A stretch of 64,000 bases of DNA from Clostridiales bacterium (lineage in GTDB: Bacteria; Bacillota; Clostridia; Oscillospirales; CAG-272): the NCBI GenBank assembly GCA_022793655.1, contig JAAWDG010000013.1:128230-192229 (forward strand), given 5' to 3'. Positions within the stretch are counted from its first letter, which is position 1, and each line of letters begins with the position of its first letter. Of this stretch, positions 31,373-42,376 are shown piece by piece. Below the pieces are notes generated by a model that saw nothing but the letters and a program-made list of their open reading frames with translations, ran no database searches and was not told where the DNA came from. The translations under genes were made by a program, and so were the position numbers.

Positions 31373-31488
31373 ATGATGCGCAAACTATAAAAATTTTTAC
31401 TACAAAACCGGTAGGCATCGGTTGTCGTGACCCGCCTTCAATCAATCGTTTTGATTATTTTCAAATTCATTGATTGGAGGATAGCAGC

Positions 31489-31944
31489 ATGAATGCTGAT
31501 AATAAGAAAATATGGGTAGATGGGAAATCTGTTGAAGTAACAGATGAAGTTTATGATGCCTATATGAAAGGTGATCGAAAAATACGCTACTTTGAAATAG
31601 ATTTAAAAACAGAGAGGATGCACATCAAAGGATGTGATAGAATCGCTGTTGTTCCAAGCCGTGAGGATTCATTGGACAGGCTAATGGACGATCAAGCCTA
31701 CCAGTTTTCTGATGACAGCGAAGGAGTGGAAGAATTTGTACTCCGCAAAGTTTCTTATGAAACACTCTACGAAGCATTGGACAAGCTGTCAAAGGATGAG
31801 CAGACTTTTGTCTTTGCAATGTTCTTTGAGAATAAAACGGAAAGGGAATTGGCTGCACTTATGGGTATTACACAGCCGGCGATCCACAAGAGAAAAATAA
31901 AAATACTTGATAAGCTAAAAAATTTTTTAAAAAATAGTATTTAG
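31489..31944 (+). CDS. Sigma-70 region-4-type (Tn916 Orf7-like) small sigma/HTH factor
   Basis: C-terminal LSKDEQTFVFAMFFENKTERELAALMGITQPAIHKRKIKILDKLK. RBS GGAGG. Confidence 0.7.
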   Translation: MNADNKKIWVDGKSVEVTDEVYDAYMKGDRKIRYFEIDLKTERMHIKGCDRIAVVPSREDSLDRLMDDQAYQFSDDSEGVEEFVLRKVSYETLYEALDKLSKDEQTFVFAMFFENKTERELAALMGITQPAIHKRKIKILDKLKNFLKNSI

Positions 31945-31997: not shown

Positions 31998-32446
31998 GCC
32001 TCTGGTGATCATTGAAAACTGAATAGCACAGCGCATTTTTTACCTTCCTTCTGCTGTCGGGAAACCGGCAAGCCACAAGAGATCATCTCAGACGGTGCGG
32101 GGCATCCGTACCGAAGGTCATGACAGGCAGGAGGGACAATGATACTTGCGTCCAGTCACAGGTCGAGCGTTGAAGCAGAGTGTAATGCTAACCGAGCAAA
32201 TATGCGAAAGCATATTTGACCGCAAAGCTATGCTTTGCGTGCCGTCGCAACCAATGAGGGCGCCTCGGAGAGTTCCTCGGAGGGGTGAGATTCCCATGAG
32301 GTCTGAAAGGCTTTGCCTTTCATCTGCACAGACCGGAAAATGCGTTCCCGTGTATCCGAGGGGCGGCGAGGATCGAATATCGGTAAAGAACAAAACGATT
32401 GATACGAATACAAGGCGGCTGTTTCCAGAATGCAAACAACCGCCTT
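31998..32446 (+). ncRNA. Candidate large structured non-coding RNA / leader upstream of mazF (class unknown)
   Basis: Stacked hairpins: 32053-32073 (GAAA loop), 32091-32119, 32166-32189, 32197-32218 (9 bp, GAAA loop), 32221-32239, 32300-32334 and 32412-32446 (13 bp). More GC-rich than its flanks. The ORFs crossing it lack an RBS and look non-protein-like. Confidence 0.4.
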
Positions 32447-32467: not shown

Positions 32468-32821
32468 ATGGAAAAAATCAAAAGAGGGCAAATCTACTAC
32501 GCCGAATTATCTCCAATAATCGGCAGTGAGCAAGGCGGCAACCGTCCCGTTGTTATCCTACAAAACGATAAAGGAAATCTCTACAGTAATACCACGATTG
32601 TAGCGGCAATCACAAGTGAGCTGGATAAAACCCATCTGCCCACGCATATCATTTTCACAGCGAACTGTATGGAAAAAACCTCTATGGTTTTGCTTGAGCA
32701 GATTAGGACGCTGGACAAATCTCGTCTTAACAATTGTATTGGGATAATGGATGATAGAACAATGCAGCGAATTGACCACGCAGTTGCAATCAGCTTGGGA
32801 CTTGAACATTTGGGGGATTAA
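32468..32821 (+). CDS. mazF: MazF/EndoA-type endoribonuclease toxin
   Basis: KRGQIYYAELSPIIGSEQGGNRPVVILQND...LPTHI...[14 protein letters not shown] closely resembles Bacillus EndoA/MazF. RBS GGAGGA. No antitoxin ORF lies upstream. Confidence 0.9.
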   Translation: MEKIKRGQIYYAELSPIIGSEQGGNRPVVILQNDKGNLYSNTTIVAAITSELDKTHLPTHIIFTANCMEKTSMVLLEQIRTLDKSRLNNCIGIMDDRTMQRIDHAVAISLGLEHLGD

Positions 32822-32823
32822 AA

Positions 32824-33162
32824 ATGAATGAAAAAAAGGGGTGGATGTATATCCGAAAAACACATCAACCGGTTATAAGTCTTGACGAACAAAAAGTGCA
32901 GCTCAGAAAATGGAGTGAATATCAGGGATACAAGATTGTTGGAGAAACGGCTATACTTGGCGGCAACGAAAAATCAAAGAATACTATAGTGAATATCCTC
33001 CACCAAGAGCCTCCAGCAAACGGTGCAACATATCTTATTACACCGTCTTTTTCTCACCTTTCCCGCAGCTTTTTCCAAACAGTTGAAATACTGAAAGAGC
33101 TGAATGAATACGGAATAGGCATTATTACGGCAAACAATCCAGTTGCTCCTAATCTAAAATAG
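32824..33162 (+). CDS. Stand-alone, probably inactive resolvase catalytic-domain protein (112 aa)
   Basis: WMYIRKTHQPVISLDEQ...YKIVGE...YLITPSFSHLSRSFFQTVEILKELNEYGIGIIT aligns to the serine-recombinase N-domain pattern (YxRVSTxxQ..SLxxQ...DRLSR...). The nucleophile Ser is Thr, and there is no DNA-binding domain. Starts 3 nt after the mazF stop. Confidence 0.6.
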   Translation: MNEKKGWMYIRKTHQPVISLDEQKVQLRKWSEYQGYKIVGETAILGGNEKSKNTIVNILHQEPPANGATYLITPSFSHLSRSFFQTVEILKELNEYGIGIITANNPVAPNLK

Positions 33163-33251
33163 AAAATATACAGTAGCCAGAAATAGAATTAGAAGATAAC
33201 GAAACAAATTGCGCTAATGCATCACAGTTTATAATATGAGGTGAAGAAACA

Positions 33252-33404
33252 ATGAATCAGACCGATCTAAATAACGCATCTTTTGCTTACAGCGTGAGCA
33301 TGCTTCGAATGCTGCTCAGAATGAAGCTTATTACCAAAGAAGAATACGATCAAATCGCGCATATCAGCGCAGAGTTTTATGGCGTAGAAGTTTATTGTGT
33401 CTGA
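33252..33404 (+). CDS. Possible 50-aa ORF
   Basis: ATG ORF MNQTDLNNASFAYSVSMLRMLLRMKLITKEEYDQIAHISAEFYGVEVYCV with a weak SD (gaggtgaag). Too short for the ORF track. Confidence 0.3.
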   Translation: MNQTDLNNASFAYSVSMLRMLLRMKLITKEEYDQIAHISAEFYGVEVYCV

Positions 33405-33542
33405 AGTGATAATTTTTCAGTTTAGCGCTGGATATATTTGTACTTCTGTGGTATTGTTAGTGCTACCCAAAGGGTAACACAGTTGCCGCAGAACAAGCGG
33501 TAATATAAAAGCAGGCAGCAAGCCTGCGGAAAGGAGAAAGAA

Positions 33543-35102
33543 ATGCAAATAACGGAAATTGCTGCTGAACGAAAGCAAAATACAAACGATATTCGCTTGG
33601 CAGCCTATTGCCGGGTATCAAGTGATTCCACCGACCAGCTCCACTCCTTTGCCACACAGATTCGGTACTACAAGGATTATGAAAAGAAGCATCCGCAGTA
33701 CAAGCTGATAGACATCTATGCAGATGAAGGGCTGACAGGCACGGATATAAAAAAGCGCGATGAGCAAAACCGATTGATCCGTGATTGCAAGAAAGGCAAA
33801 ATTGACCGCATCATCGTCAAATCTGTATCCCGCTTTGCCAGAAACACGCGGGAGCTTCTCGTCACACTGCGAATGCTGAAGGAAATCGGCGTGAGCGTGT
33901 ACTTCGAGGAACAAGGCATTGATACTGACAAAATCAATATGGAAATGATTGTAGCATTCCCCGGTATGGCGGCTCAACAAGAGTCGGAAACCATATCGGG
34001 GAATATGCGTTGGAGTTACCAGAAAAGGATAGGATCGGGCGAGTTTAATTGCACCTATCCGGCATATGGATTCAGCCTTGTAAAAGGAAAGCTGGAAATC
34101 AACGAATCGGAAGCGTATGTGGTGCGGAGAATATTTAATTTGTATCTTCAAGGAATTGGGATGCAACGGATTGCCAATCTGCTCAATGAAGAAAACATTC
34201 CCCGCAGAAAAGAAACGCAGAAATGGCACTGCTCAACTGTTAAATATGTTTTGAATAACGAGAGATACATGGGTGACGCTATTCTCCAAAAGAGTTATAC
34301 AACTGAAACCCTGCCGTTTCGCAAGCGCAGGAACAACGGCGAATTTCCAAAGGTCTATGTGGAAAACAGTAATCCGCCTATCGTTAGTAGAGAGGTATAT
34401 CAAACGGCACAGAAGCTGCAAGAAGAACGGGCTGTTCACAGGTGCAGTCGACATTCTACCTATCCGCTGTCAAAGATGCTTCGTTGTCCCGACTGCGGCA
34501 GAGCTTTCCGACGACAATTTGTAGCCGGCAAAGCTTATTGGCTATGCGCAGGCAAAGCGGCAGGATCAACTGACTGTAAAAATAGGCGCGTGAAAGAGGA
34601 TAAAGTTTATGAATCCTTTAATCAGATGGTATGGAAACTAAAGGCTTATCGAGACCAGCTTCTCACCCCCCTGATTCGTCAGATGGAATCTATGCAGAGC
34701 CAATCCAGTCATTTACAGGAACCAATCCGAGCCATTGATAAGGAAATCGCTGATCTTAGCGCACAGAACCTTGTAGTTGCAAGATTTCATACTAAAGGTA
34801 TACTGAATGCCGCAGACTTCTCCGCACAAGCAGATGCGTTAAGCAGTAAAATCCGTGAGCTTCGCGCAAAACGCCATAAATTGCTTGCTATGGATGAAAC
34901 GAACGAACTGATCAATACCTTGTGCGACCTGAACAAAAAAATACGAGAGTATGAACCTACTGGCGGCTTTGATGAGGAACTATTTGAGCAGATCGTTGTT
35001 TCCGTCGTCGTGAACGATAACGCCTCGCTCACCTTTAAGTTGCTCGGCGGTGTAGAATTAACTGAAGAAATCCCATTGAAAGGAAGGTGTAAATCCACAT
35101 GA
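33543..35102 (+). CDS. Large serine recombinase 1 (519 aa)
   Basis: Catalytic motif AAYCRVSSDSTDQ, resolvase domain, recombinase domain, zinc ribbon (CPDCG...C..GK...C), and a coiled-coil tail. Confidence 0.9.
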   Translation: MQITEIAAERKQNTNDIRLAAYCRVSSDSTDQLHSFATQIRYYKDYEKKHPQYKLIDIYADEGLTGTDIKKRDEQNRLIRDCKKGKIDRIIVKSVSRFARNTRELLVTLRMLKEIGVSVYFEEQGIDTDKINMEMIVAFPGMAAQQESETISGNMRWSYQKRIGSGEFNCTYPAYGFSLVKGKLEINESEAYVVRRIFNLYLQGIGMQRIANLLNEENIPRRKETQKWHCSTVKYVLNNERYMGDAILQKSYTTETLPFRKRRNNGEFPKVYVENSNPPIVSREVYQTAQKLQEERAVHRCSRHSTYPLSKMLRCPDCGRAFRRQFVAGKAYWLCAGKAAGSTDCKNRRVKEDKVYESFNQMVWKLKAYRDQLLTPLIRQMESMQSQSSHLQEPIRAIDKEIADLSAQNLVVARFHTKGILNAADFSAQADALSSKIRELRAKRHKLLAMDETNELINTLCDLNKKIREYEPTGGFDEELFEQIVVSVVVNDNASLTFKLLGGVELTEEIPLKGRCKST

Positions 35103-35953
35103 AGAACCGTAATATCCCATTCGGATATCAGTATCAAAACGGAGTTGTAACGCTGCATCCGATAGAAGAACAGGTACTCCGGCAGATTGCCAGAGATTAC
35201 CTGGCCGGTCAGTCGCTACTGAAAATTGCAGAGGGTTTGAATGCTAATCAGGTTGAATATCAGCCCGGTATTATTGGCTGGAACAAAGCGAGGATCATGC
35301 GTCTGCTTGAAGATAAGCGCTATCTTGGTGACGGCGGATATCCCGCCATTATCGATGCGGATACTTTTGCTTCGATTCAAATTAAGAAGTACAACCGAAA
35401 CAAATTGAAAAATATAGACAGGCAATCAGACATTTTCCAAATTACCGTCCCTGTCCTGTGTCCCGACTGTGGCACAGAGATGCACCGCAGACACGACAGT
35501 CGATGCAAATGCACCGAGCGGTGGTTTTGTCGCAATAAGGATTGCAAAACCCTGATTAAACTATCAGACCACGATCTGCTCTCACAGATCACAGCAATTC
35601 TCAATCAGCTCGTCGTTCATCCCGAACGGATAAAAGGCGATAAATTGCAGGAATTGGCTCCAACCACTGAACAGAGAAGGCTTGACAATGAAATCGGCAG
35701 GATGATAGATACCAAAGTGCACGAGAAAGAAACACTACAAAAGAAGATGTTAGAGATGGTTTCCCTCAAATACAAATTGATTCCGTCAACTGTCGGAACT
35801 GCATACAGATTAAAAGCGGACTTCGAGCAATCGGGTCCGCTTTCTGTATTCTCAGCTGAACTTTTTGGAAATACAGTAAACGCCATTTATCTAAACAGGG
35901 ATAGCACTATTGAACTTAAACTGCTGAACGGTCAGCGAATCGGAAAGGAGTAA
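35099..35953 (+). CDS. Recombinase-domain/zinc-ribbon protein lacking the catalytic resolvase domain (284 aa)
   Basis: Starts directly with the recombinase-domain pattern IPFGYQYQNGVVTLHPIEEQVLRQIARDYLAGQS...WNKARIMRLLEDKRYLGDG, followed by CPDCG...C zinc-ribbon cysteines. No YxRVS motif. ATGA overlap with the previous gene. Confidence 0.75.
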   Translation: MKNRNIPFGYQYQNGVVTLHPIEEQVLRQIARDYLAGQSLLKIAEGLNANQVEYQPGIIGWNKARIMRLLEDKRYLGDGGYPAIIDADTFASIQIKKYNRNKLKNIDRQSDIFQITVPVLCPDCGTEMHRRHDSRCKCTERWFCRNKDCKTLIKLSDHDLLSQITAILNQLVVHPERIKGDKLQELAPTTEQRRLDNEIGRMIDTKVHEKETLQKKMLEMVSLKYKLIPSTVGTAYRLKADFEQSGPLSVFSAELFGNTVNAIYLNRDSTIELKLLNGQRIGKE

Positions 35954-35957
35954 AAGT

Positions 35958-37595
35958 ATGTCAGAAACAACAGTACAACCACCGAGGGTAGTTCGGGTAA
36001 TTCCTGCAACTATTGATGTGGCAAAGGAAATAAAGGAAGCCTACCGTCAGATTCGGGTAGCCGCCTACTGCCGAGTATCTACTAATCAGGAAGAACAACT
36101 CAATAGCTACGAAGTGCAGAAAAACTACTACGCCGAGAAAATCAATAGCGAGCCGAAATGGACACTGGTGGATATCTTTGCCGATAAGGGAATCACTGGC
36201 ACCAGCGTCAAGAAGCGGGATGAATTCAACCGCATGATTCGAATGTGCAAGCGTGGTAAAATCGATATGATTATCACCAAATCCATCAGCCGTTTTGCAA
36301 GAAACACAGTAGACTGCCTTACTTATGTGCGAAAACTAAAGGATATGAATGTGGATGTCTTTTTTGAAGAACAGGGCATTCACAGCACACAGCCTGGCGC
36401 TGAATTCTATATTACTATTTACGGATGCATCGCACAAAGCGAATCAGAGAACATAAGCGCTAATGTCAAATGGGGCAAAGCACAGAGCGCTAAGGAAGGT
36501 AACGTATCATTTCACTACAAAAACTTCCTTGGCTACCGCAAGGGCGCAGACGGCAAACCGGAAATTGTTCCCGAAGAAGCGGAGATCATTCGCACTATTT
36601 ACAAACGCTTCCTTGCGGGAGACAGCTTTGGAAGTATTATAGCGTATTTGGAGGAACGCCGCATCCTGTCGCCAAGCGGAAAAGAGAAATGGCAGTATTC
36701 CACCATCCAATCAATTCTCTCAAATGAACGCTATAAAGGTGACGTTATTATAAACAAGACTTATATAGTAGACTGCATCAGCAAGAAAGTGAAGGTCAAC
36801 AATGGCGAACGGACTAAATACTATGTCAAGAATAATCATCCCGCCATTATCGATGCTGGCACATTCGGCAGAGTTCAGGAAGAATTGGCAAGACGATCCG
36901 GCAAAAGAAAAGTCAAGATGGTCGGCACGAAAACCGAACAAGGAAAATACTCCGGTAAATATGCGTTAACTGAACTGCTGGTCTGCGGAGAGTGCGGAAC
37001 ACCCTATCGCCGATGCACATGGACGGTCAAAGGACAAAAGAAAATTGTGTGGCGTTGTATCAACCGGTTGGACTTCGGCAAGAAATACTGTCATACATCC
37101 CCGACCATAGAAGAAAGCGTCCTGCATAGCGCCATCATGACCGCAATCATGGAACAAGCACAACAGAACGTCGAAGTATTAAAAATGCTTAAACTGCACA
37201 TTGGCATGGGAATCAAAGCAGATGATACAGAAGACAAGAGCCTTGATATGCAAATCCGTATAGCAGAGATTGACGCTGAATTCAAGCAAATGCTTCAAGC
37301 AATTTCTTCCGAAAATTTAGAAACCTACGATGAAACAAAAATGACAGAGCTAATGTACGAAAAGCAAAGCCTGCAACAGCAGCTTTCGCAGATCGCAGAC
37401 AGACAACAAAAGCGAGAGAATGCAAAATCCCGATTAGCCGAAATCGTCACCATCCTTGACGGATTGAAAAATCACCCGATGGATTACGATGATACCCTCG
37501 TCCGCCAAATACTCGAATGCGTGGTAGTCGAGAACAAAGAACGAATTAAAGTAGTATTCGTCGGCGGTCTTAAAGCGGAACAGGAACTTCAATAA
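35958..37595 (+). CDS. Large serine recombinase 2 (545 aa)
   Basis: AAYCRVSTNQEEQ catalytic motif, recombinase domain, CGECGTPYRRC...WRC zinc ribbon, and a coiled coil. Confidence 0.9.
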   Translation: MSETTVQPPRVVRVIPATIDVAKEIKEAYRQIRVAAYCRVSTNQEEQLNSYEVQKNYYAEKINSEPKWTLVDIFADKGITGTSVKKRDEFNRMIRMCKRGKIDMIITKSISRFARNTVDCLTYVRKLKDMNVDVFFEEQGIHSTQPGAEFYITIYGCIAQSESENISANVKWGKAQSAKEGNVSFHYKNFLGYRKGADGKPEIVPEEAEIIRTIYKRFLAGDSFGSIIAYLEERRILSPSGKEKWQYSTIQSILSNERYKGDVIINKTYIVDCISKKVKVNNGERTKYYVKNNHPAIIDAGTFGRVQEELARRSGKRKVKMVGTKTEQGKYSGKYALTELLVCGECGTPYRRCTWTVKGQKKIVWRCINRLDFGKKYCHTSPTIEESVLHSAIMTAIMEQAQQNVEVLKMLKLHIGMGIKADDTEDKSLDMQIRIAEIDAEFKQMLQAISSENLETYDETKMTELMYEKQSLQQQLSQIADRQQKRENAKSRLAEIVTILDGLKNHPMDYDDTLVRQILECVVVENKERIKVVFVGGLKAEQELQ

Positions 37596-37813
37596 TACCA
37601 AGATTCAAACCCCTCTGTAAAAACGCCTAAAAACGCCATCGCAATCTGAACCCCTGTGGTTTGGACTGGGTGGTGTTTCACTTTATAACTCCAGTATTTA
37701 AGCGGCTTTTCAAGGTCGTTTTTCTTTTTAATCATTTGGACTGATAAAGAAGAAAAATGTGAATTTTGAAATAAGATCATCTAAAACGAATGAATCCGAA
37801 CTCGTCAGTCCAT

Positions 37814-37962
37814 TTAATTATTCCGATTTTCCCTTCGTTTTAAGGCGTATTCTATCTCTTTCTATTCAGGAGTTTTGTATTGTAAAAAATAATATACTTG
37901 TCCACTGCATCACGAAAATCCTTTTCTGGTTTATTATTGTGTAGAAGAAAAGTCACTCCAAA
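37814..37962 (-). pseudogene. Possible decayed C-terminal fragment of an rve-type transposase/integrase
   Basis: Minus-strand frames read ...KPEKDFRDAVDKYIIFYNT, then after a frame change KTPE*KEIEYALKRRENRNN*. This is reminiscent of the ..YN..R....KTP.EY.. transposase C-terminus. It is broken by stops and a frameshift. Confidence 0.25.
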
Positions 37963-38031
37963 TCATTGCAGTTCTTTGAGAGTGGTTATAAAAACAACCT
38001 TAATTATGTCTTTTAAGTTGATATATATACT

Positions 38032-38529
38032 TTATCTGTTATTTACTGTTTCAGGATAAATATCATGATGCGCAAGACGCTCCCATGCAACCTGCTCCCA
38101 TTTTGTACCTGGTCTGCCGTAATTGCAGTACGGATCAATAGAAATTCCTCCCCGCGGCAGGAACTTTCCCCATACCTCTATATATGCAGGTTCCATAAGT
38201 TGAATCAGATCATTCATAATTATGTTTACGCAATCTTCATGGAAATCTCCGTGATTGCGGAAGCTGAATAAATATAGTTTTAATGACTTGCTTTCAACCA
38301 TAAGCTCTCTTGGAACATAGGATATATACAGCGTTGCAAAATCCGGCTGCCCGGTAATCGGACAAAGGCTGGTAAACTCAGGACAATTAAATTTGACAAA
38401 ATAGTCGCGTCCGGGATGCTTGTTTGGAAATGTCTCAAGAATCTCAGGCGTATAATCTGATGCATACTGTGTGTGCTGATTGCCAAGCAGTGTTATACTT
38501 CCTTTTTCATGCTCGTTTCTTTCATTCAT
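38032..38529 (-). CDS. queF: NADPH-dependent 7-cyano-7-deazaguanine (preQ0) reductase
   Basis: 165 aa type-I QueF with [23 protein letters not shown] and [20 protein letters not shown]. Confidence 0.95.
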
Positions 38530-39217
38530 ATCTTTTTCCCTCCATTGCCGGATCTTCTATTCCATTTGCTGCAAACGCCGCGGCGCGGTCACGGCATGTA
38601 CCGCAAACACCGCAGGGTATATCCCCCCCCTCATAACAACTCCACGTCAATGCATATGGCACACCAAGCGCAAGTCCTTTTTGTATAATCTGCGCTTTGT
38701 TCATTTTAACAAATGGGGCTTCAATGTGCAGTTGCTGTCCGCTTCCTAAATACACGGCGCGGTTCATGGAATCATTGAAAGCGTCACTGCAATCCGGATA
38801 AGCATTGCCTGCTGCATCGTCGCTGTGAGCGCCATAATAGATTGCCTCACAACCATGTGAAAGAGCAATGCTTGCCGCCGATGCAAGAAACAACCCATTT
38901 CGGAAAGGAACATATGTAGATACCGGGTTCCCATCTGTATGCGCCAACTGCTCCGCGTAGCTTTCCTTTGGAATTTCATCTGTTGATTTGGAAAGCAGCG
39001 CGCAGTTTGAATCTGCAAAGATCAGCGCAAGATCAAGCTGCTTAAAAGTAACTCCGTAATATTCTGCTATTCTCCTTGCCGCTTCAAGTTCCTTGTTATG
39101 GGTTTGCCCGTAAAAAACAGAAAGCGCAAGAACCTCTCCCACACCATACTTTTCAATAGCTAATCCAAGGCAGGTTGTACTGTCAACTCCACCGCTGAAA
39201 AGAACTAATGCTTTCAT
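38522..39217 (-). CDS. queC: 7-cyano-7-deazaguanine synthase
   Basis: [16 protein letters not shown] (PP-loop) and C-terminal zinc-binding cysteines [18 protein letters not shown]. Confidence 0.95.
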
Positions 39218-39783
39218 TTGTTTTCCTCCAATAAATTTTGTAATTGTATATCCGTTTTAAATGCACCACGAAATGTTTTGGTCACCGTTTGTGCCGAAAC
39301 ATTTTTTATTCCACGCGCTGTCATACAGCTGTGGGATCCGATGATACGAACGCCTATATCCTGCGTCCCCGCAGCTTCCGATAGGATTTCTACAATATCC
39401 TGTCCCAACCGTTCCTGTAGTTGAAGCCGTTTGGCTGCCATATCACAAATTCGGGCAATCTTGCTAAGCCCAAGAACACGCCCACAAGGAATATAGGCGA
39501 TATTTACTTTTATATCGTACATCAACGCCATATGGTGTTCACAATAGCTGAACACGCTGATATCCTTCATCACAACAGCACTGCGGCTCTCACTATCTGC
39601 CACCGCAAAGGTCTTTCCAAACATTTCTGCAATTTCATGATTCGAATACTGCGTTCCCGCAAGCACTTCTTCATACATTTTGGCAACTCGTCTGGGCGTT
39701 TCGCGAAGCCCCTCTCGGTCAGGATTTTCGCCAATTGCTTTCAAAATTCCGCGCACATGATATTCAATCGCTTTTGTATCCAT
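39214..39783 (-). CDS. folE: GTP cyclohydrolase I
   Basis: GLRETPRRVAKMYEE, SYCEHHM and QLQERL motifs. Confidence 0.95.
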   Translation of the reverse strand: MDTKAIEYHVRGILKAIGENPDREGLRETPRRVAKMYEEVLAGTQYSNHEIAEMFGKTFAVADSESRSAVVMKDISVFSYCEHHMALMYDIKVNIAYIPCGRVLGLSKIARICDMAAKRLQLQERLGQDIVEILSEAAGTQDIGVRIIGSHSCMTARGIKNVSAQTVTKTFRGAFKTDIQLQNLLEENK

Positions 39784-39814
39784 ATTTATGACCGTACCTT
39801 TCTAACTTGAAAAC

Positions 39815-40486
39815 CTAAACGCCGCGCCGTGTCGGATTCCAGATATATTTATGAAGTTGCAGCTGCAATCTAACCTGATTCAGCATATGTTCTTTCATGA
39901 AGGATACAATCGTATCCGGATGAATTTCTCCGAATACCGGACTGAAATAAACGCAGCAGCGTGAAGTAAGATCAAATTTGCGAATAATCTCCGTCGCACG
40001 TTTTAAATCCTTAAGATCGCTAACAACAAATTTAACAGTATCCTTTGCAGTGAGATAAGAGAAATTTTCCGTACACATGTATTTCTCCATTTCGCTTCCC
40101 GGAAGTTTATAATCCATGGTTACGCTTGTATGTTCTGAAAACGGAGCAAATGTTTTCAATGGCACACTGCCGTTAGTCTCTATTTCCACATATAAACCAT
40201 GCATATTCAGCGCAGCAATCAAATTTCCTATATTCTTCTGTAAAAGGGGTTCACCACCTGTCAGAGTAACATTTTGAACGCCTGTAGATATAACATAATC
40301 GGTAAGCTGCCCGACTGTCATTTCTTCAGCAATGGCGTCATCGGAATTGGCCCAGCGTGTATCACAGTAGCTGCAATGCAAGTTACACGTACAAAAACGC
40401 AAAAAAACAGCAAGTTCGCCTGCACGTCTTCCTTCGCCGTTAATACTGACAAATTTCTCTGCTACAGATAAGCTGCACATACTCAC
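39815..40486 (-). CDS. queE: 7-carboxy-7-deazaguanine synthase (radical SAM)
   Basis: FLRFCTCNLHCSYCDT cluster motif, 223 aa. Confidence 0.9.
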   Translation of the reverse strand: MSMCSLSVAEKFVSINGEGRRAGELAVFLRFCTCNLHCSYCDTRWANSDDAIAEEMTVGQLTDYVISTGVQNVTLTGGEPLLQKNIGNLIAALNMHGLYVEIETNGSVPLKTFAPFSEHTSVTMDYKLPGSEMEKYMCTENFSYLTAKDTVKFVVSDLKDLKRATEIIRKFDLTSRCCVYFSPVFGEIHPDTIVSFMKEHMLNQVRLQLQLHKYIWNPTRRGV

Positions 40487-40902
40487 ACCTCGTAAACTGC
40501 GCAGTTATCCGGCGTTTCATAAACGGTTACTCTGTAAATCGGCAGTCCCTTCTCATATAGTTTTTCAAAGAAGCAACGGGCAAAATTTTCGGCCGTGGGG
40601 CGGAAATCAACTGAAATCGAGTGAAAATTTTCAGATAAAAGCGCCGCTTCCGTGTCCGGTTTCAAAGAATTTTTTTCGTAAATCAGCGTATGATCAAAGC
40701 GGTTGGCAAGTTCTCTAACAGCTTGCTTCAAATCACCGAAATCAACTAGCATACCGTTGCAACTTCCATTTTTTTGCAATTGATCACCCGAAATCTCTAC
40801 TTCAATCACCCAATGATGCCCATGCAGGTTAGCGCACTTTCCATCATACCCCTGCAAAAAATGTGCACTGTCAAATGATGCGGATGTTTTTAAATAATAC
40901 AT
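40483..40902 (-). CDS. queD: 6-carboxy-5,6,7,8-tetrahydropterin synthase
   Basis: FDSAHFLQGYDGKCANLHGHHW (PTPS-family motif). Confidence 0.9.
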   Translation of the reverse strand: MYYLKTSASFDSAHFLQGYDGKCANLHGHHWVIEVEISGDQLQKNGSCNGMLVDFGDLKQAVRELANRFDHTLIYEKNSLKPDTEAALLSENFHSISVDFRPTAENFARCFFEKLYEKGLPIYRVTVYETPDNCAVYEV

Positions 40903-40930
40903 AGTCTCCCTCTCTTTTTTCTGTCTTTAT

Positions 40931-41045
40931 AAAAAAAGCAGCCGATAAAAACCGGCTGCATCTGCAAAACAAAATTCCCGTAAATAGTTTTACTGGATGC
41001 CCTGGTTTTGTTTTTCGACAGGATGGCGCAAACGAACTGTCGTTA
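40931..41045 (-). promoter_or_regulatory. preQ1-I-like riboswitch with a terminator expression platform
   Basis: Minus strand reads CGACAG-UUC-GUUUGCGCCAUC-CUGUCG-AAAAACAAAACCAGGG (~41001-41042): P1 stem, UUC, a C just before the 3' P1 strand, and an A-rich tail with GGC able to pair the loop GCC. Then comes the terminator GCAGCCG-GUUUUUAU-CGGCUGC plus U7 (40931-40959). Located in the queD leader. Confidence 0.6.
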
Positions 41046-41058
41046 TTTAGTTTTGGTT

Positions 41059-41087
41059 ATTGTATCATGACCCGATATATATGTCAA
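41059..41087 (-). promoter_or_regulatory. que operon promoter (TTGACA, 17-nt spacer, TACAAT)
   Basis: On the minus strand: TTGACA (41087-41082), a 17-nt spacer, then TACAAT (41064-41059). Confidence 0.65.
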
Positions 41088-41195
41088 GTGAAATCCTTAT
41101 TATTCTCTGAAGCTTTTGTTGGGGATTTAGCGGTGTGTTCCACTGCTCACATTTTAAAAATTTCATGCATATTCTTATACGAGAGGAATTAGCCT

Positions 41196-42092
41196 ATGAA
41201 TCAAAACAATCGTTATAATAACGCAAATCACTGTAATTTCCCGGTTGGATTTCCGCCTCAGCATCAGGACGAACAACCGGGACTTGAATATATTATGACA
41301 CCGATACCTATGAGTGAGTGCTGCAAATCCCGTCCAAAACTGACAAATAAAATTGCACTGATAACTGGAGGTGACAGCGGAATAGGGAGAGCCATTGCAT
41401 ATGATTTTGTGAAGGAAGGCGCAAAAGTTGCAATAGTTTATTTTGATGAAGATCGTGACGCCAACGAAACTGCAAACCGAATCAGACAGCTCGGCGGAGA
41501 ATGTATTCTCTTACAGGGTGATTTAAAGAATCCTGAATTTGCCAAACACTGTGTAGAAAAAACAGTGCAATGTTTCGGTACATTAGATATCCTTATCAAT
41601 AATCATGCATTTCAGTTTGTACAGAGAAGCATAATGGATATTTCACATGAACAGCTGGAATTTATATTCAGAAATAATGTGTTCTCTTTTTTCTATTTAA
41701 TTCAGCATGCATTGCCTTATATGAAGAAAGGAAGTTCAATTATCAATACAACGTCTGTTACCGCATATGAAGGAAATAAAGATCTGATTGATTACAGCGC
41801 GACTAAAGGTGCGATTGTAGCCTTGACAAGATCTTTGTCGATCTCTCTTGCCGAAAAAGGAGTCAGAGTTAATGCTGTTGCTCCGGGACCTATCTGGACA
41901 CCGCTTATCCCTGCATCTTATTCGGCAGAGGAAGTAAAAACTTTCGGAACAAAGACTTCACAGGTTCCGATGATGCGTGCCGGACAGCCGTGTGAGGTGT
42001 CTCCCTGCTATGTTTTTCTTGCTTCTGAAGACGCAAGCTATATGACAGGTCAGGTGCTTCATCCAAACGGAGGGACAATTGTCGGATCATGA
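41196..42092 (+). CDS. SDR-family oxidoreductase (YdaD/YhdF general-stress type)
   Basis: ALITGGDSGIGRAIA, NNHA, and YSATKGAIVALTRSL (YxxxK). Confidence 0.8.
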   Translation: MNQNNRYNNANHCNFPVGFPPQHQDEQPGLEYIMTPIPMSECCKSRPKLTNKIALITGGDSGIGRAIAYDFVKEGAKVAIVYFDEDRDANETANRIRQLGGECILLQGDLKNPEFAKHCVEKTVQCFGTLDILINNHAFQFVQRSIMDISHEQLEFIFRNNVFSFFYLIQHALPYMKKGSSIINTTSVTAYEGNKDLIDYSATKGAIVALTRSLSISLAEKGVRVNAVAPGPIWTPLIPASYSAEEVKTFGTKTSQVPMMRAGQPCEVSPCYVFLASEDASYMTGQVLHPNGGTIVGS

Positions 42093-42376
42093 CGAGATAA
42101 TTAAGTATTTTTCTTATGGATATTTTGTTTTATAACCCCAGTAATTATGCAACTTTTCAAAGACTTTGTTTATTTTCTTCATTATTCGCAAATTTATATT
42201 GCAAGAAAATTCCCCAAACGAATAAATCTGAACCAATTGGTTTATTTGATCATCCTCAATCTACTTGCTTATTTTAAAGTATATTCTTTCTGTCATTGTT
42301 CAATAGTCTTGTATTACGTGAGTTCAAATCCACCACCAAAACCGCAAAAATATCTTTTTTATAGTGCTTAGACAGA

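Follow-up and report, generated by a model that had tools for sequence, protein, structure and literature searches.

The nearest described system to the one analysed here is that of the serine-integrase triplets at the ends of streptococcal integrative and conjugative elements (ICEs). In the Tn5252 and Tn1549 superfamilies, the proteins of these triplets cluster as external, middle and internal, which points to an ancestral three-gene module (Ambroset et al., 2016; PMC4701971). All 42 streptococcal integrases were reported with the Resolvase domain PF00239, and the triplets insert into the protein-coding genes mutT, traG and hsdM (Ambroset et al., 2016; PMC4701971). A related trio of genes lies in a 64,000-nucleotide (nt) stretch of DNA from Clostridiales bacterium (assembly GCA_022793655.1, contig JAAWDG010000013.1, positions 128,230 to 192,229), called the window below. 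It encodes two complete large serine recombinases (LSRs) and, between them, a middle protein, M, which, judged from its sequence, is a conserved stand-alone LSR paralogue that has no catalytic domain and is not a recombinase. As in the streptococci, three adjacent, co-oriented genes of the LSR family form part of a Firmicutes ICE module and cluster by position. Unlike the streptococcal triplets, as far as their published description allows the comparison, the middle protein here never carries a Resolvase domain, and the present element is located at the CCA end of a tRNA gene. Full-text literature searches found the streptococcal triplets and no description of a middle member devoid of the catalytic domain, and a search for the triplets in a phage collection found none, only streptococcal prophages with a single LSR. 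The names of the three genes (inner, middle and outer) follow Ambroset et al. (2016):

33543..35102, + strand: LSR_I, inner complete LSR, 519 amino acids (aa), motif AAYCRVSS; Pfam Resolvase, Recombinase and Zn_ribbon_recom
35099..35953, + strand: M, LSR paralogue without catalytic domain, 284 aa; Pfam Recombinase and a sub-threshold zinc ribbon
35958..37595, + strand: LSR_E, outer complete LSR, 545 aa, motif AAYCRVST; Pfam Resolvase, Recombinase and Zn_ribbon_recom

Two different LSRs lying side by side are also known from CcrA and CcrB of SCCmec (staphylococcal cassette chromosome mec), a heteromeric system in which the two proteins contribute unequally to DNA binding. To our knowledge, both Ccr proteins are full-length and catalytic, the target is rlmH and not a tRNA end, and we know of no third member of that system without a catalytic domain, that is, of no counterpart of M.

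An earlier note on this DNA, made from the letters and a list of open reading frames (ORFs), had described five consecutive + strand ORFs, including two complete LSRs of 519 aa (YCRVSS) and 545 aa (YCRVST). The ORF listing and Pfam agree with it on coordinates and domains: each LSR has the Resolvase, Recombinase and Zn_ribbon_recom domains, PF00239 scores 92.6 bits in LSR_I and 113.6 bits in LSR_E, and the motifs Y-x-R-V-S and S-R-F-A-R-N are invariant in both (45 orthologues each). The same holds for the description of M as a protein that starts at the recombinase domain, has zinc-ribbon cysteines and no catalytic domain, and is coupled to the preceding LSR through ATGA, which Pfam, the alignment and the junction CACATGAAG bear out; at this junction the TGA stop of LSR_I lies within the ATG start of M. 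The ribosome-binding site of LSR_E (AAGGAG) is found inside the last codons of M. A programmed frameshift fusing LSR_I to M was set aside, as there is no slippery heptamer at CCACATGA.

M begins at the first strand of the recombinase domain and consists of a recombinase domain, a four-Cys zinc ribbon, a short coiled coil and a C-terminal beta element; a recombinase domain and a zinc ribbon with an embedded coiled coil are present in LSR_I, M and LSR_E alike. Pfam detects only part of the recombinase domain of M (PF07508, 31.9 bits), and the zinc ribbon falls below the Pfam cut-off (16.7 versus 25.3 bits, E 0.0096). M aligns to the C-terminal regions of both LSR neighbours from the first recombinase-domain strand to the last residues, at 20-26% identity, and the profile-profile comparisons, with scores of 183 against LSR_I and 128 against LSR_E, both run end to end. 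The recombinase-domain and zinc-ribbon parts are basic (isoelectric points 9.6 and 8.7). The AlphaFold model of M (predicted local distance difference test, pLDDT, 86.5) matches LSR structures exclusively at E <= 0.001, over their DNA-binding regions, and its top 19 matches in the PDB are all LSR-DNA complexes (SPbeta, LI, PhiC31 and Bxb1). By sequence, the nearest solved recombinase is the SPbeta integrase. The C-terminal region of the LI integrase on an attP half-site (PDB 4KIS) and the SPbeta integrase-SprB complexes (9DXD, 9DXH, 9Y66) are matched over the recombinase domain, the zinc ribbon and the coiled coil. These structures are parts of catalytic enzymes or laboratory truncations, whereas M is the product of a natural stand-alone gene; compared with them, as with its two neighbours, M lacks 29 residues of the recombinase domain, and its coiled coil is much shorter. 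The predicted structure thus gives M the parts with which an LSR binds a half-site, without those for DNA cutting or helix-E dimerisation, a composition that would equip it for half-site binding and not for cutting.

The family to which M belongs is large and made up of stand-alone proteins of 273-340 aa, encoded in mobile elements of gut Clostridia. A search covering 5.8 billion proteins yielded at least 689 homologues, counted as protein clusters; the 120 homologues listed measure 218-337 aa and are ~50% identical to M. Among 38 aligned homologues the start, MKNRNIPFGY, is conserved (9 of the 38 have a short called extension upstream of it), and 29 columns are invariant, including the four cysteines C121, C124, C144 and C149. 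PF00239 was absent from M and from every homologue examined. When Clostridia were sampled, a match to M (E <= 1e-20) was present in 19 of 399 species genomes, distributed over 16 of 217 genera; outside the window, 17 uncut matches are open frames of 287-344 aa and one more, cut by a contig end, has 161 aa. For M, the ratio of non-synonymous to synonymous substitutions (dN/dS) varies between 0.10 and 0.41 around a median of 0.18 (Nei-Gojobori, 239 pairs with usable dS), a value indicative of purifying selection.

In a survey of 80 M loci in species-representative genomes, M was flanked directly by an LSR of the ~519-aa type upstream and one of the ~545-aa type downstream in 73, and the ATGA overlap with the upstream LSR was found in 55 of these 73. 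The seven exceptions are contig ends, decayed copies, an artefact of the start-codon filter (L078) and a locus with no LSR called upstream (L037). The earlier note had named two circumstances that would refute its reading, and for M both are excluded. The first was an unnoticed upstream catalytic exon due to sequencing error: across the 73 loci, no more than 54 in-frame codons precede the M start. The second was a recent pseudogene with intact fused orthologues: a length-shifted query, for which only proteins of 442-1405 aa were eligible, found no Resolvase+M fusion among the candidates drawn from the 5.8 billion proteins. What this long-protein search did yield was one M fused to the tail of LSR_E, three M with unrelated C-terminal extensions and one ordinary LSR (25% identity). 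Three of the four M fusions were retrieved, and each begins at the M start (K[NK]R..P[FY]GY); the fourth, P0138, was not retrieved. The metagenomic P0135 (467 aa) is a natural deletion derivative in which M is in frame with the C-terminal 170 residues of the outer LSR.

Some loci depart from the plain trio. At L051:293-6788, five consecutive genes of the recombinase family are arranged as LSR, M, LSR, a distant second M-like gene (258 aa) and LSR. In L030 and L049 (836-5004), the inner LSR is reduced to 284 aa and two further, unrelated LSR genes precede it; it looks as if another recombinase element had inserted into the recombinase gene.

The history of the trio was read from a maximum-likelihood tree of the C-terminal regions of the inner, middle and outer proteins of 15 related trios and three distant ones, the latter from two human-gut contigs deposited as bacteriophage and from the 352-kb plasmid pRUMAL02 of Ruminococcus albus 7, whose M is 25-28% identical to that of the window. 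Inner, middle and outer proteins form one clade each (support by the Shimodaira-Hasegawa-like approximate likelihood ratio test, SH-aLRT, of 81, 98 and 99, respectively), with the same branching order inside the three clades. Because the clades are parallel, the trio with a short M predates the split of these element lineages, and the loss of the catalytic domain was a single, ancient event. The tree therefore speaks against a common origin of M and the 112-aa resolvase-fold protein encoded further upstream (R112), for which the earlier note had proposed a phylogeny: M is an old clade of its own, parallel to the enzymes. It is consistent with M having lost the catalytic domain and the alpha-E helix a single time, in the common ancestor of the module family, and with inner LSR, M and outer LSR being an old, co-inherited three-gene unit. 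Judged by branch lengths, the evolutionary rate of M is two to three times that of LSR_E.

The trio of R. albus 7 (L110; pRUMAL02, 261306-270145) encodes proteins of 512, 289 and 545 aa and adjoins a P4-type primase on a conjugative megaplasmid. Since it comes from a cultured, fully sequenced strain, R. albus 7 is a possible experimental system for the trio. RefSeq labels all three of its genes 'recombinase family protein', so pipelines that find elements by counting integrases over-count.

Taken together, these data favour, with a probability of about 0.7, the view that the window holds the module of an ICE with an old LSR-M-LSR trio, in which M is a non-catalytic DNA-binding partner, and that R112 is the product of an unrelated, truncated and optional gene. 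M would be made together with both enzymes through translational coupling and, as a non-catalytic subunit, would bind DNA at the attachment sites or next to them. Contact with the catalytic subunits might be made through the coiled coil or the C-terminal element that it shares with its neighbours, and M would thereby help to set the choice of site or the direction of recombination. The role of heteromeric partner or regulator that the earlier note had suggested for both partial proteins is thus a reasonable one for M, which is conserved and not a recent pseudogene; R112 belongs to a separate family.

Several points weigh against this interpretation. That M binds DNA, touches the enzymes and influences direction is presumed from fold and conservation, and contact through the coiled coil is uncertain because that of M is much shorter than those of the enzymes. 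Besides, an IMG/VR scan with the outer LSR returned six distant loci, too few to estimate how often M is absent, and three of these more distant loci (L114, L115 and L117) contain overlapping LSR pairs (~440 and ~530 aa) with no M between them. In these viral contigs, therefore, a pair of enzymes apparently manages without a partner of the M type.

By position only, M and a 50-aa SHOCT_2 protein encoded ahead of LSR_I are both candidates for a recombination directionality factor, a protein that binds the integrase and switches it from attP x attB to attL x attR. Factors of the SprB type are small proteins unrelated to LSR domains, and we know of no sequence signature for the directionality factors of LSRs.

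The part of the module that precedes LSR_I is made up as follows:

31474..31944, + strand: sigma-70 region-4 regulator heading the module; Pfam Sigma70_r4, E 5.6e-6; a homologue is found at the same position in many related loci
32136..32299, + strand: cis-regulatory leader, the pemK RNA motif (Rfam RF02913); cmscan score 61.2 bits, gathering score 34.8
32468..32821, + strand: gene of a PemK/MazF-family toxin, 117 aa from the ATG at 32468; Pfam PemK_toxin, E 4.4e-29
32824..33162, + strand: R112, 112 aa, a truncated, degenerate stand-alone resolvase-fold protein; Pfam Resolvase, 37.9 bits
33163..33251, + strand: out-of-frame remnant of the C-terminal helix and acidic tail of R112, from comparison with L010
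33252..33404, + strand: SHOCT_2 small protein, 50 aa; Pfam SHOCT_2, 29.8 bits against a cut-off of 24

The pemK RNA motif, which exceeds the Rfam gathering threshold, lies 169 nt upstream of pemK. SHOCT_2 belongs to the constant part of the module, ahead of the first LSR, an ORF of 45-53 aa occurring there in nearly all related loci, and the order of pemK directly upstream of SHOCT_2 is conserved across 45 of them. A block of this kind, with sigma factor, pemK RNA, PemK, small ORF and serine recombinase, is known from clostridial conjugative transposons such as C. difficile 023_CTn2 (PMC6814731). Ahead of the recombinase genes, the genes stand in the same order there as here, whereas in 023_CTn2 a single serine recombinase is listed after the small ORF and there is no trio. 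A scan of the + strand for terminators, from pemK to the end of LSR_E, gave no terminator-like site in the spacers; its two matches lie within coding sequence and have weak T tails. Since the spacers are free of such sites, pemK through LSR_E is likely to form a single transcription unit. The 138-nt spacer between SHOCT_2 and LSR_I (33405-33542) contains a GC-rich hairpin (GCAGGCAGCAAGCCTGC), separated at its end by 3 nt from the ribosome-binding site, which may be a translational or transcriptional control point.

R112 is, as had been recognised in the earlier note, a catalytic-domain-only protein in which the nucleophilic Ser is replaced by Thr (WMYIRKTH). Resolvase is its sole Pfam domain (37.9 bits, cut-off 23.3; positions 4-101 of the 145 in the profile), and its equivalent of SRFARN reads SHLSRS, with the first Arg changed to His. 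A word-based search with R112 found nothing apart from R112 itself, and an exhaustive HMMER search of 1.84 billion representatives brought together 14 proteins. Of these, 13 were retrieved, and all are stand-alone, with lengths of 112-198 aa, the nearest relatives having 122-198 aa; the fourteenth, of 1892 aa, has four short matched stretches. At the nucleophile position the relatives have T, N, S, G or A, and the equivalents of SRFARN in the family read SHLSRS, EHLSGN, TAISRK or DKIMRV. The catalytic Ser and Arg residues are not conserved, then, and the family is degenerate and presumably non-catalytic. The AlphaFold model of a 145-aa relative (pLDDT 78.9) nonetheless shows the catalytic-domain fold of serine recombinases followed by a long C-terminal helix, and its top matches are the catalytic domains of TP901-1, Sin, IS607-type and C. 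difficile transposon recombinases. Many members of the family carry an extra, degenerate catalytic motif at the N terminus (YMRVGNKEQ), a mini-motif (VAVYMRVGNKEQL) in which Gly or Ala replaces Ser and which lies 15-30 residues before the second motif, KAWxYIR. It was seen in P0124, P0126, P0128, P0131, P0133, L012, L067 and L075; R112 of the window has the second motif only.

Comparison with L010 indicates how R112 came to be short: a TAG replaces an ATG codon (Met114) and a 16-nt deletion follows, while the acidic tail can still be read out of frame (EIELEDNETN... versus EIELEDEKTN... in L010). R112 is thus a truncated allele of a 145-aa protein whose C-terminal helix is gone, and it is probably impaired. 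Elsewhere the family is under purifying selection, with a dN/dS of 0.12 between L067 and L075; the value for the window against L010 is 0.41. Eight of the nine relatives with a readable neighbourhood lie directly upstream of a SHOCT_2 or LSR gene, six of them directly after pemK. The occupants of this slot are those of L009-L011 (145 aa, 65% identical), L067 and L075 (164 aa), L089 (193 aa), L112 (175 aa) and L113 (169 aa), and they sit in trio modules or in short contigs consistent with such modules. L089 has SHOCT_2 and no pemK in view, the relative in L111 has a different context, and the one in L012 (165 aa) lies on a 1.2-kb contig that shows nothing but an unidentified ORF downstream. Just two of the 45 genome loci showing both pemK and SHOCT_2 contain an R112-type gene. 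Gene order and comparison thus depict R112 as a damaged member of a sparse, optional accessory family (145-198 aa) tied to pemK and distributed independently of M, and its slot as one that would be translationally coupled to the PemK gene, upstream of SHOCT_2.

The coupling to pemK invites an explanation of the R112 family that has nothing to do with recombination, namely that it serves the PemK toxin, for instance as a downstream antitoxin with an acidic tail. In the window and in L010, L067, L075, L112 and L113, the start of the gene overlaps the pemK stop or directly adjoins it, intact members do end in an acidic tail, and no MazE-type gene precedes pemK in the window. A general antitoxin it is not, as most modules carry pemK without an R112-type gene; no pemK was seen upstream of the family member in L012, L089 and L111, R112 of the window has lost the acidic tail while pemK is intact, and the fold is that of a recombinase catalytic domain. 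A service to PemK is for these reasons unlikely, although it survives better than any other rival account.

Somewhat less probable still is that M is a built-in negative regulator or immunity factor, which would occupy att half-sites or cap the coiled coils of the enzymes in the manner of truncated transposase inhibitors. To keep the DNA-binding domains and dispense with the chemistry is the classic make-up of a dominant negative, and the faster evolution of M seen in the branch lengths would suit such a role. The tight coupling between two enzyme genes and the strict co-inheritance throughout the family fit a stoichiometric partner better, and it is because of them that a role as subunit or regulator is favoured over inhibition, between which the present evidence does not directly discriminate.

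The earlier note had taken R112 and M for the complementary halves of a third recombinase, which might reassemble into an active or regulatory enzyme. Their domain contents are indeed complementary, and the intact 145-aa relatives of R112 carry an alpha-E-like C-terminal helix, the very piece that M is missing. In ~95% of modules, however, M has no such partner, the 80 M loci being almost always without a resolvase-only gene. The small family does not conserve the catalytic residues, and R112 of the window does not have the helix. Its gene is coupled to pemK and not to M. Neither does the claim of a common origin hold: the kin of R112 are stand-alone proteins of 122-198 aa and not the N termini of LSRs, and in profile comparisons R112 shows weak similarity to the N-terminal domains of the two neighbouring LSRs (probability 64-84%, 14-17% identity). 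A split recombinase is accordingly very improbable.

That M is a decaying fragment, whether a pseudogene or a full LSR broken by an error of sequencing or assembly, could be suspected from its missing catalytic domain and the partial Pfam match to its recombinase domain, and is refuted by hundreds of homologues of the same length with a conserved start, a dN/dS of 0.18 with four invariant Cys, the lack of any fused relative, the presence of LSR_I in the upstream space in 73 loci and the age of M as a monophyletic clade.

The preferred interpretation, an old trio with M as non-catalytic partner, extends to the element as a whole. The module belongs to an ICE of ~44.9 kb located at the CCA end of a tRNA-Tyr gene, of which it would be the control and recombination part. 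That this is a multi-LSR module of an ICE, as the earlier note supposed, is supported by the content of the first 37.6 kb of the window, where a MobL relaxase, a VirD4 coupling protein, a VirB4-like ATPase, a cell-wall hydrolase, a thioester adhesin and an ArdA-like protein are encoded. The left end of the element abuts the CCA of tRNA-Tyr at G000 C24:125730, 2.5 kb to the left of the window. Among genomes of the same genus, G003 and G006 have related left ends at the same tRNA, and in G002 and G004 the site is empty, the tRNA being followed by a terminator. The right end was recognised by a consensus of ~60 nt shared by 43 distinct related elements downstream of LSR_E, which reads GAGAGTTCAAATCC, ~8 variable nt and CAAAACGCCAAAATATCTTTTTTATAGTCCTTAGACA; beyond it, the sequences diverge, usually into a terminator. 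Two places in the window resemble this consensus:

37596..37650, + strand: partial, degenerate copy of the terminal region, with a pseudo T-arm GATTCAAACC and AAAAACGCC twice, without the crossover-proximal arm; from comparison with the 43-element consensus
42318..42374, + strand: true right end (P arm), an exact match to the family consensus GAGTTCAAATCC...AAAATATCTTTTTTATAGTGCTTAGACA, with the crossover CA at 42373-42374 and a terminator hairpin following

A right end just after LSR_E was rejected, as only the degenerate partial copy is found there and the full consensus is at 42318-42374; a short-word BLAST search of the whole genome with 37590-37760 was uninformative. The right attachment site (attR) is thus placed at 42373-42374, 4.8 kb past the last recombinase gene, and the left one (attL) at the CA of the tRNA-Tyr CCA. 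The crossover-proximal right arm is an inverted repeat of the left end at ~20 of 28 positions around the central CA, according to a hand count at the corrected coordinate; a scripted comparison of the arms, offset by 2 nt, had given 15 of 30. Both arms share a ATAAAAAAGATATT box as inverted repeats; the left arm is defined at G000 C24:125729-125760, within the stretch 125700-125775 to the left of the window. In L023 and L087, the right-end arm runs straight into an arm of the left-end type (…CTTACACATCAAAGGGCTACAAAAAAGATAT…), an attP-like junction that would therefore stem from tandem elements or from assembled circular forms.

When the flanks are joined, they resemble the empty tRNA-Tyr sites of two congeners. 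The DNA of the window at 37700-39300 and the QueC protein had no match in same-genus genomes, and the ORFs to the right of 42374 had none in the short empty-site loci. As synteny of the right flank is lacking in the congeners, the empty site is supported by its tRNA-Tyr side and by the form that the flanks take when joined.

The right end contains a further conserved feature, a box resembling a tRNA T-arm (GAGAGTTCAAATCC) with an acceptor-like stretch, at 42320-42333, which recurs at this position in 43 related loci (among them L013, L015 and L060). It lies 46-58 nt inside the right end, outside the palindromic core of ~50 bp, and on one arm only. In L001 and L003 the acceptor-like part next to the box equals that of a nearby real tRNA. 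The box may be an accessory binding site or a relic. One could go further and imagine M as the third, non-catalytic subunit of a three-protein integrase, which would bind the T-arm-like box outside a ~50-bp core held by both enzymes and steer the coiled coil, so as to choose between integration and excision at a generic tRNA CCA end. This proposal is speculative and, as it stands, improbable; if it were true, M would be a built-in subunit for directionality and targeting that originated from the recombinase itself.

Large serine integrases are major tools of genome engineering, and the control of their direction is being solved structurally only now, for single enzymes that act with unrelated, small directionality factors. 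The system described here would be a natural one that keeps a catalytically empty copy of the integrase DNA-binding region as the permanent partner of two active enzymes. It occurs in ~5% of the sampled Clostridia species and points to an undescribed mode of control or site selection.

To the picture of the trio, the window adds the optional slot for a resolvase-fold protein and a right end displaced from the recombinase genes. The interval between LSR_E and this end (38032-42092) contains queF, queC, folE, queE and queD, names of queuosine-precursor genes that were assigned by inspecting the translations, together with a short-chain dehydrogenase gene. QueC had no match in five same-genus genomes, and since these genes lie inside the element, they are cargo of the ICE.

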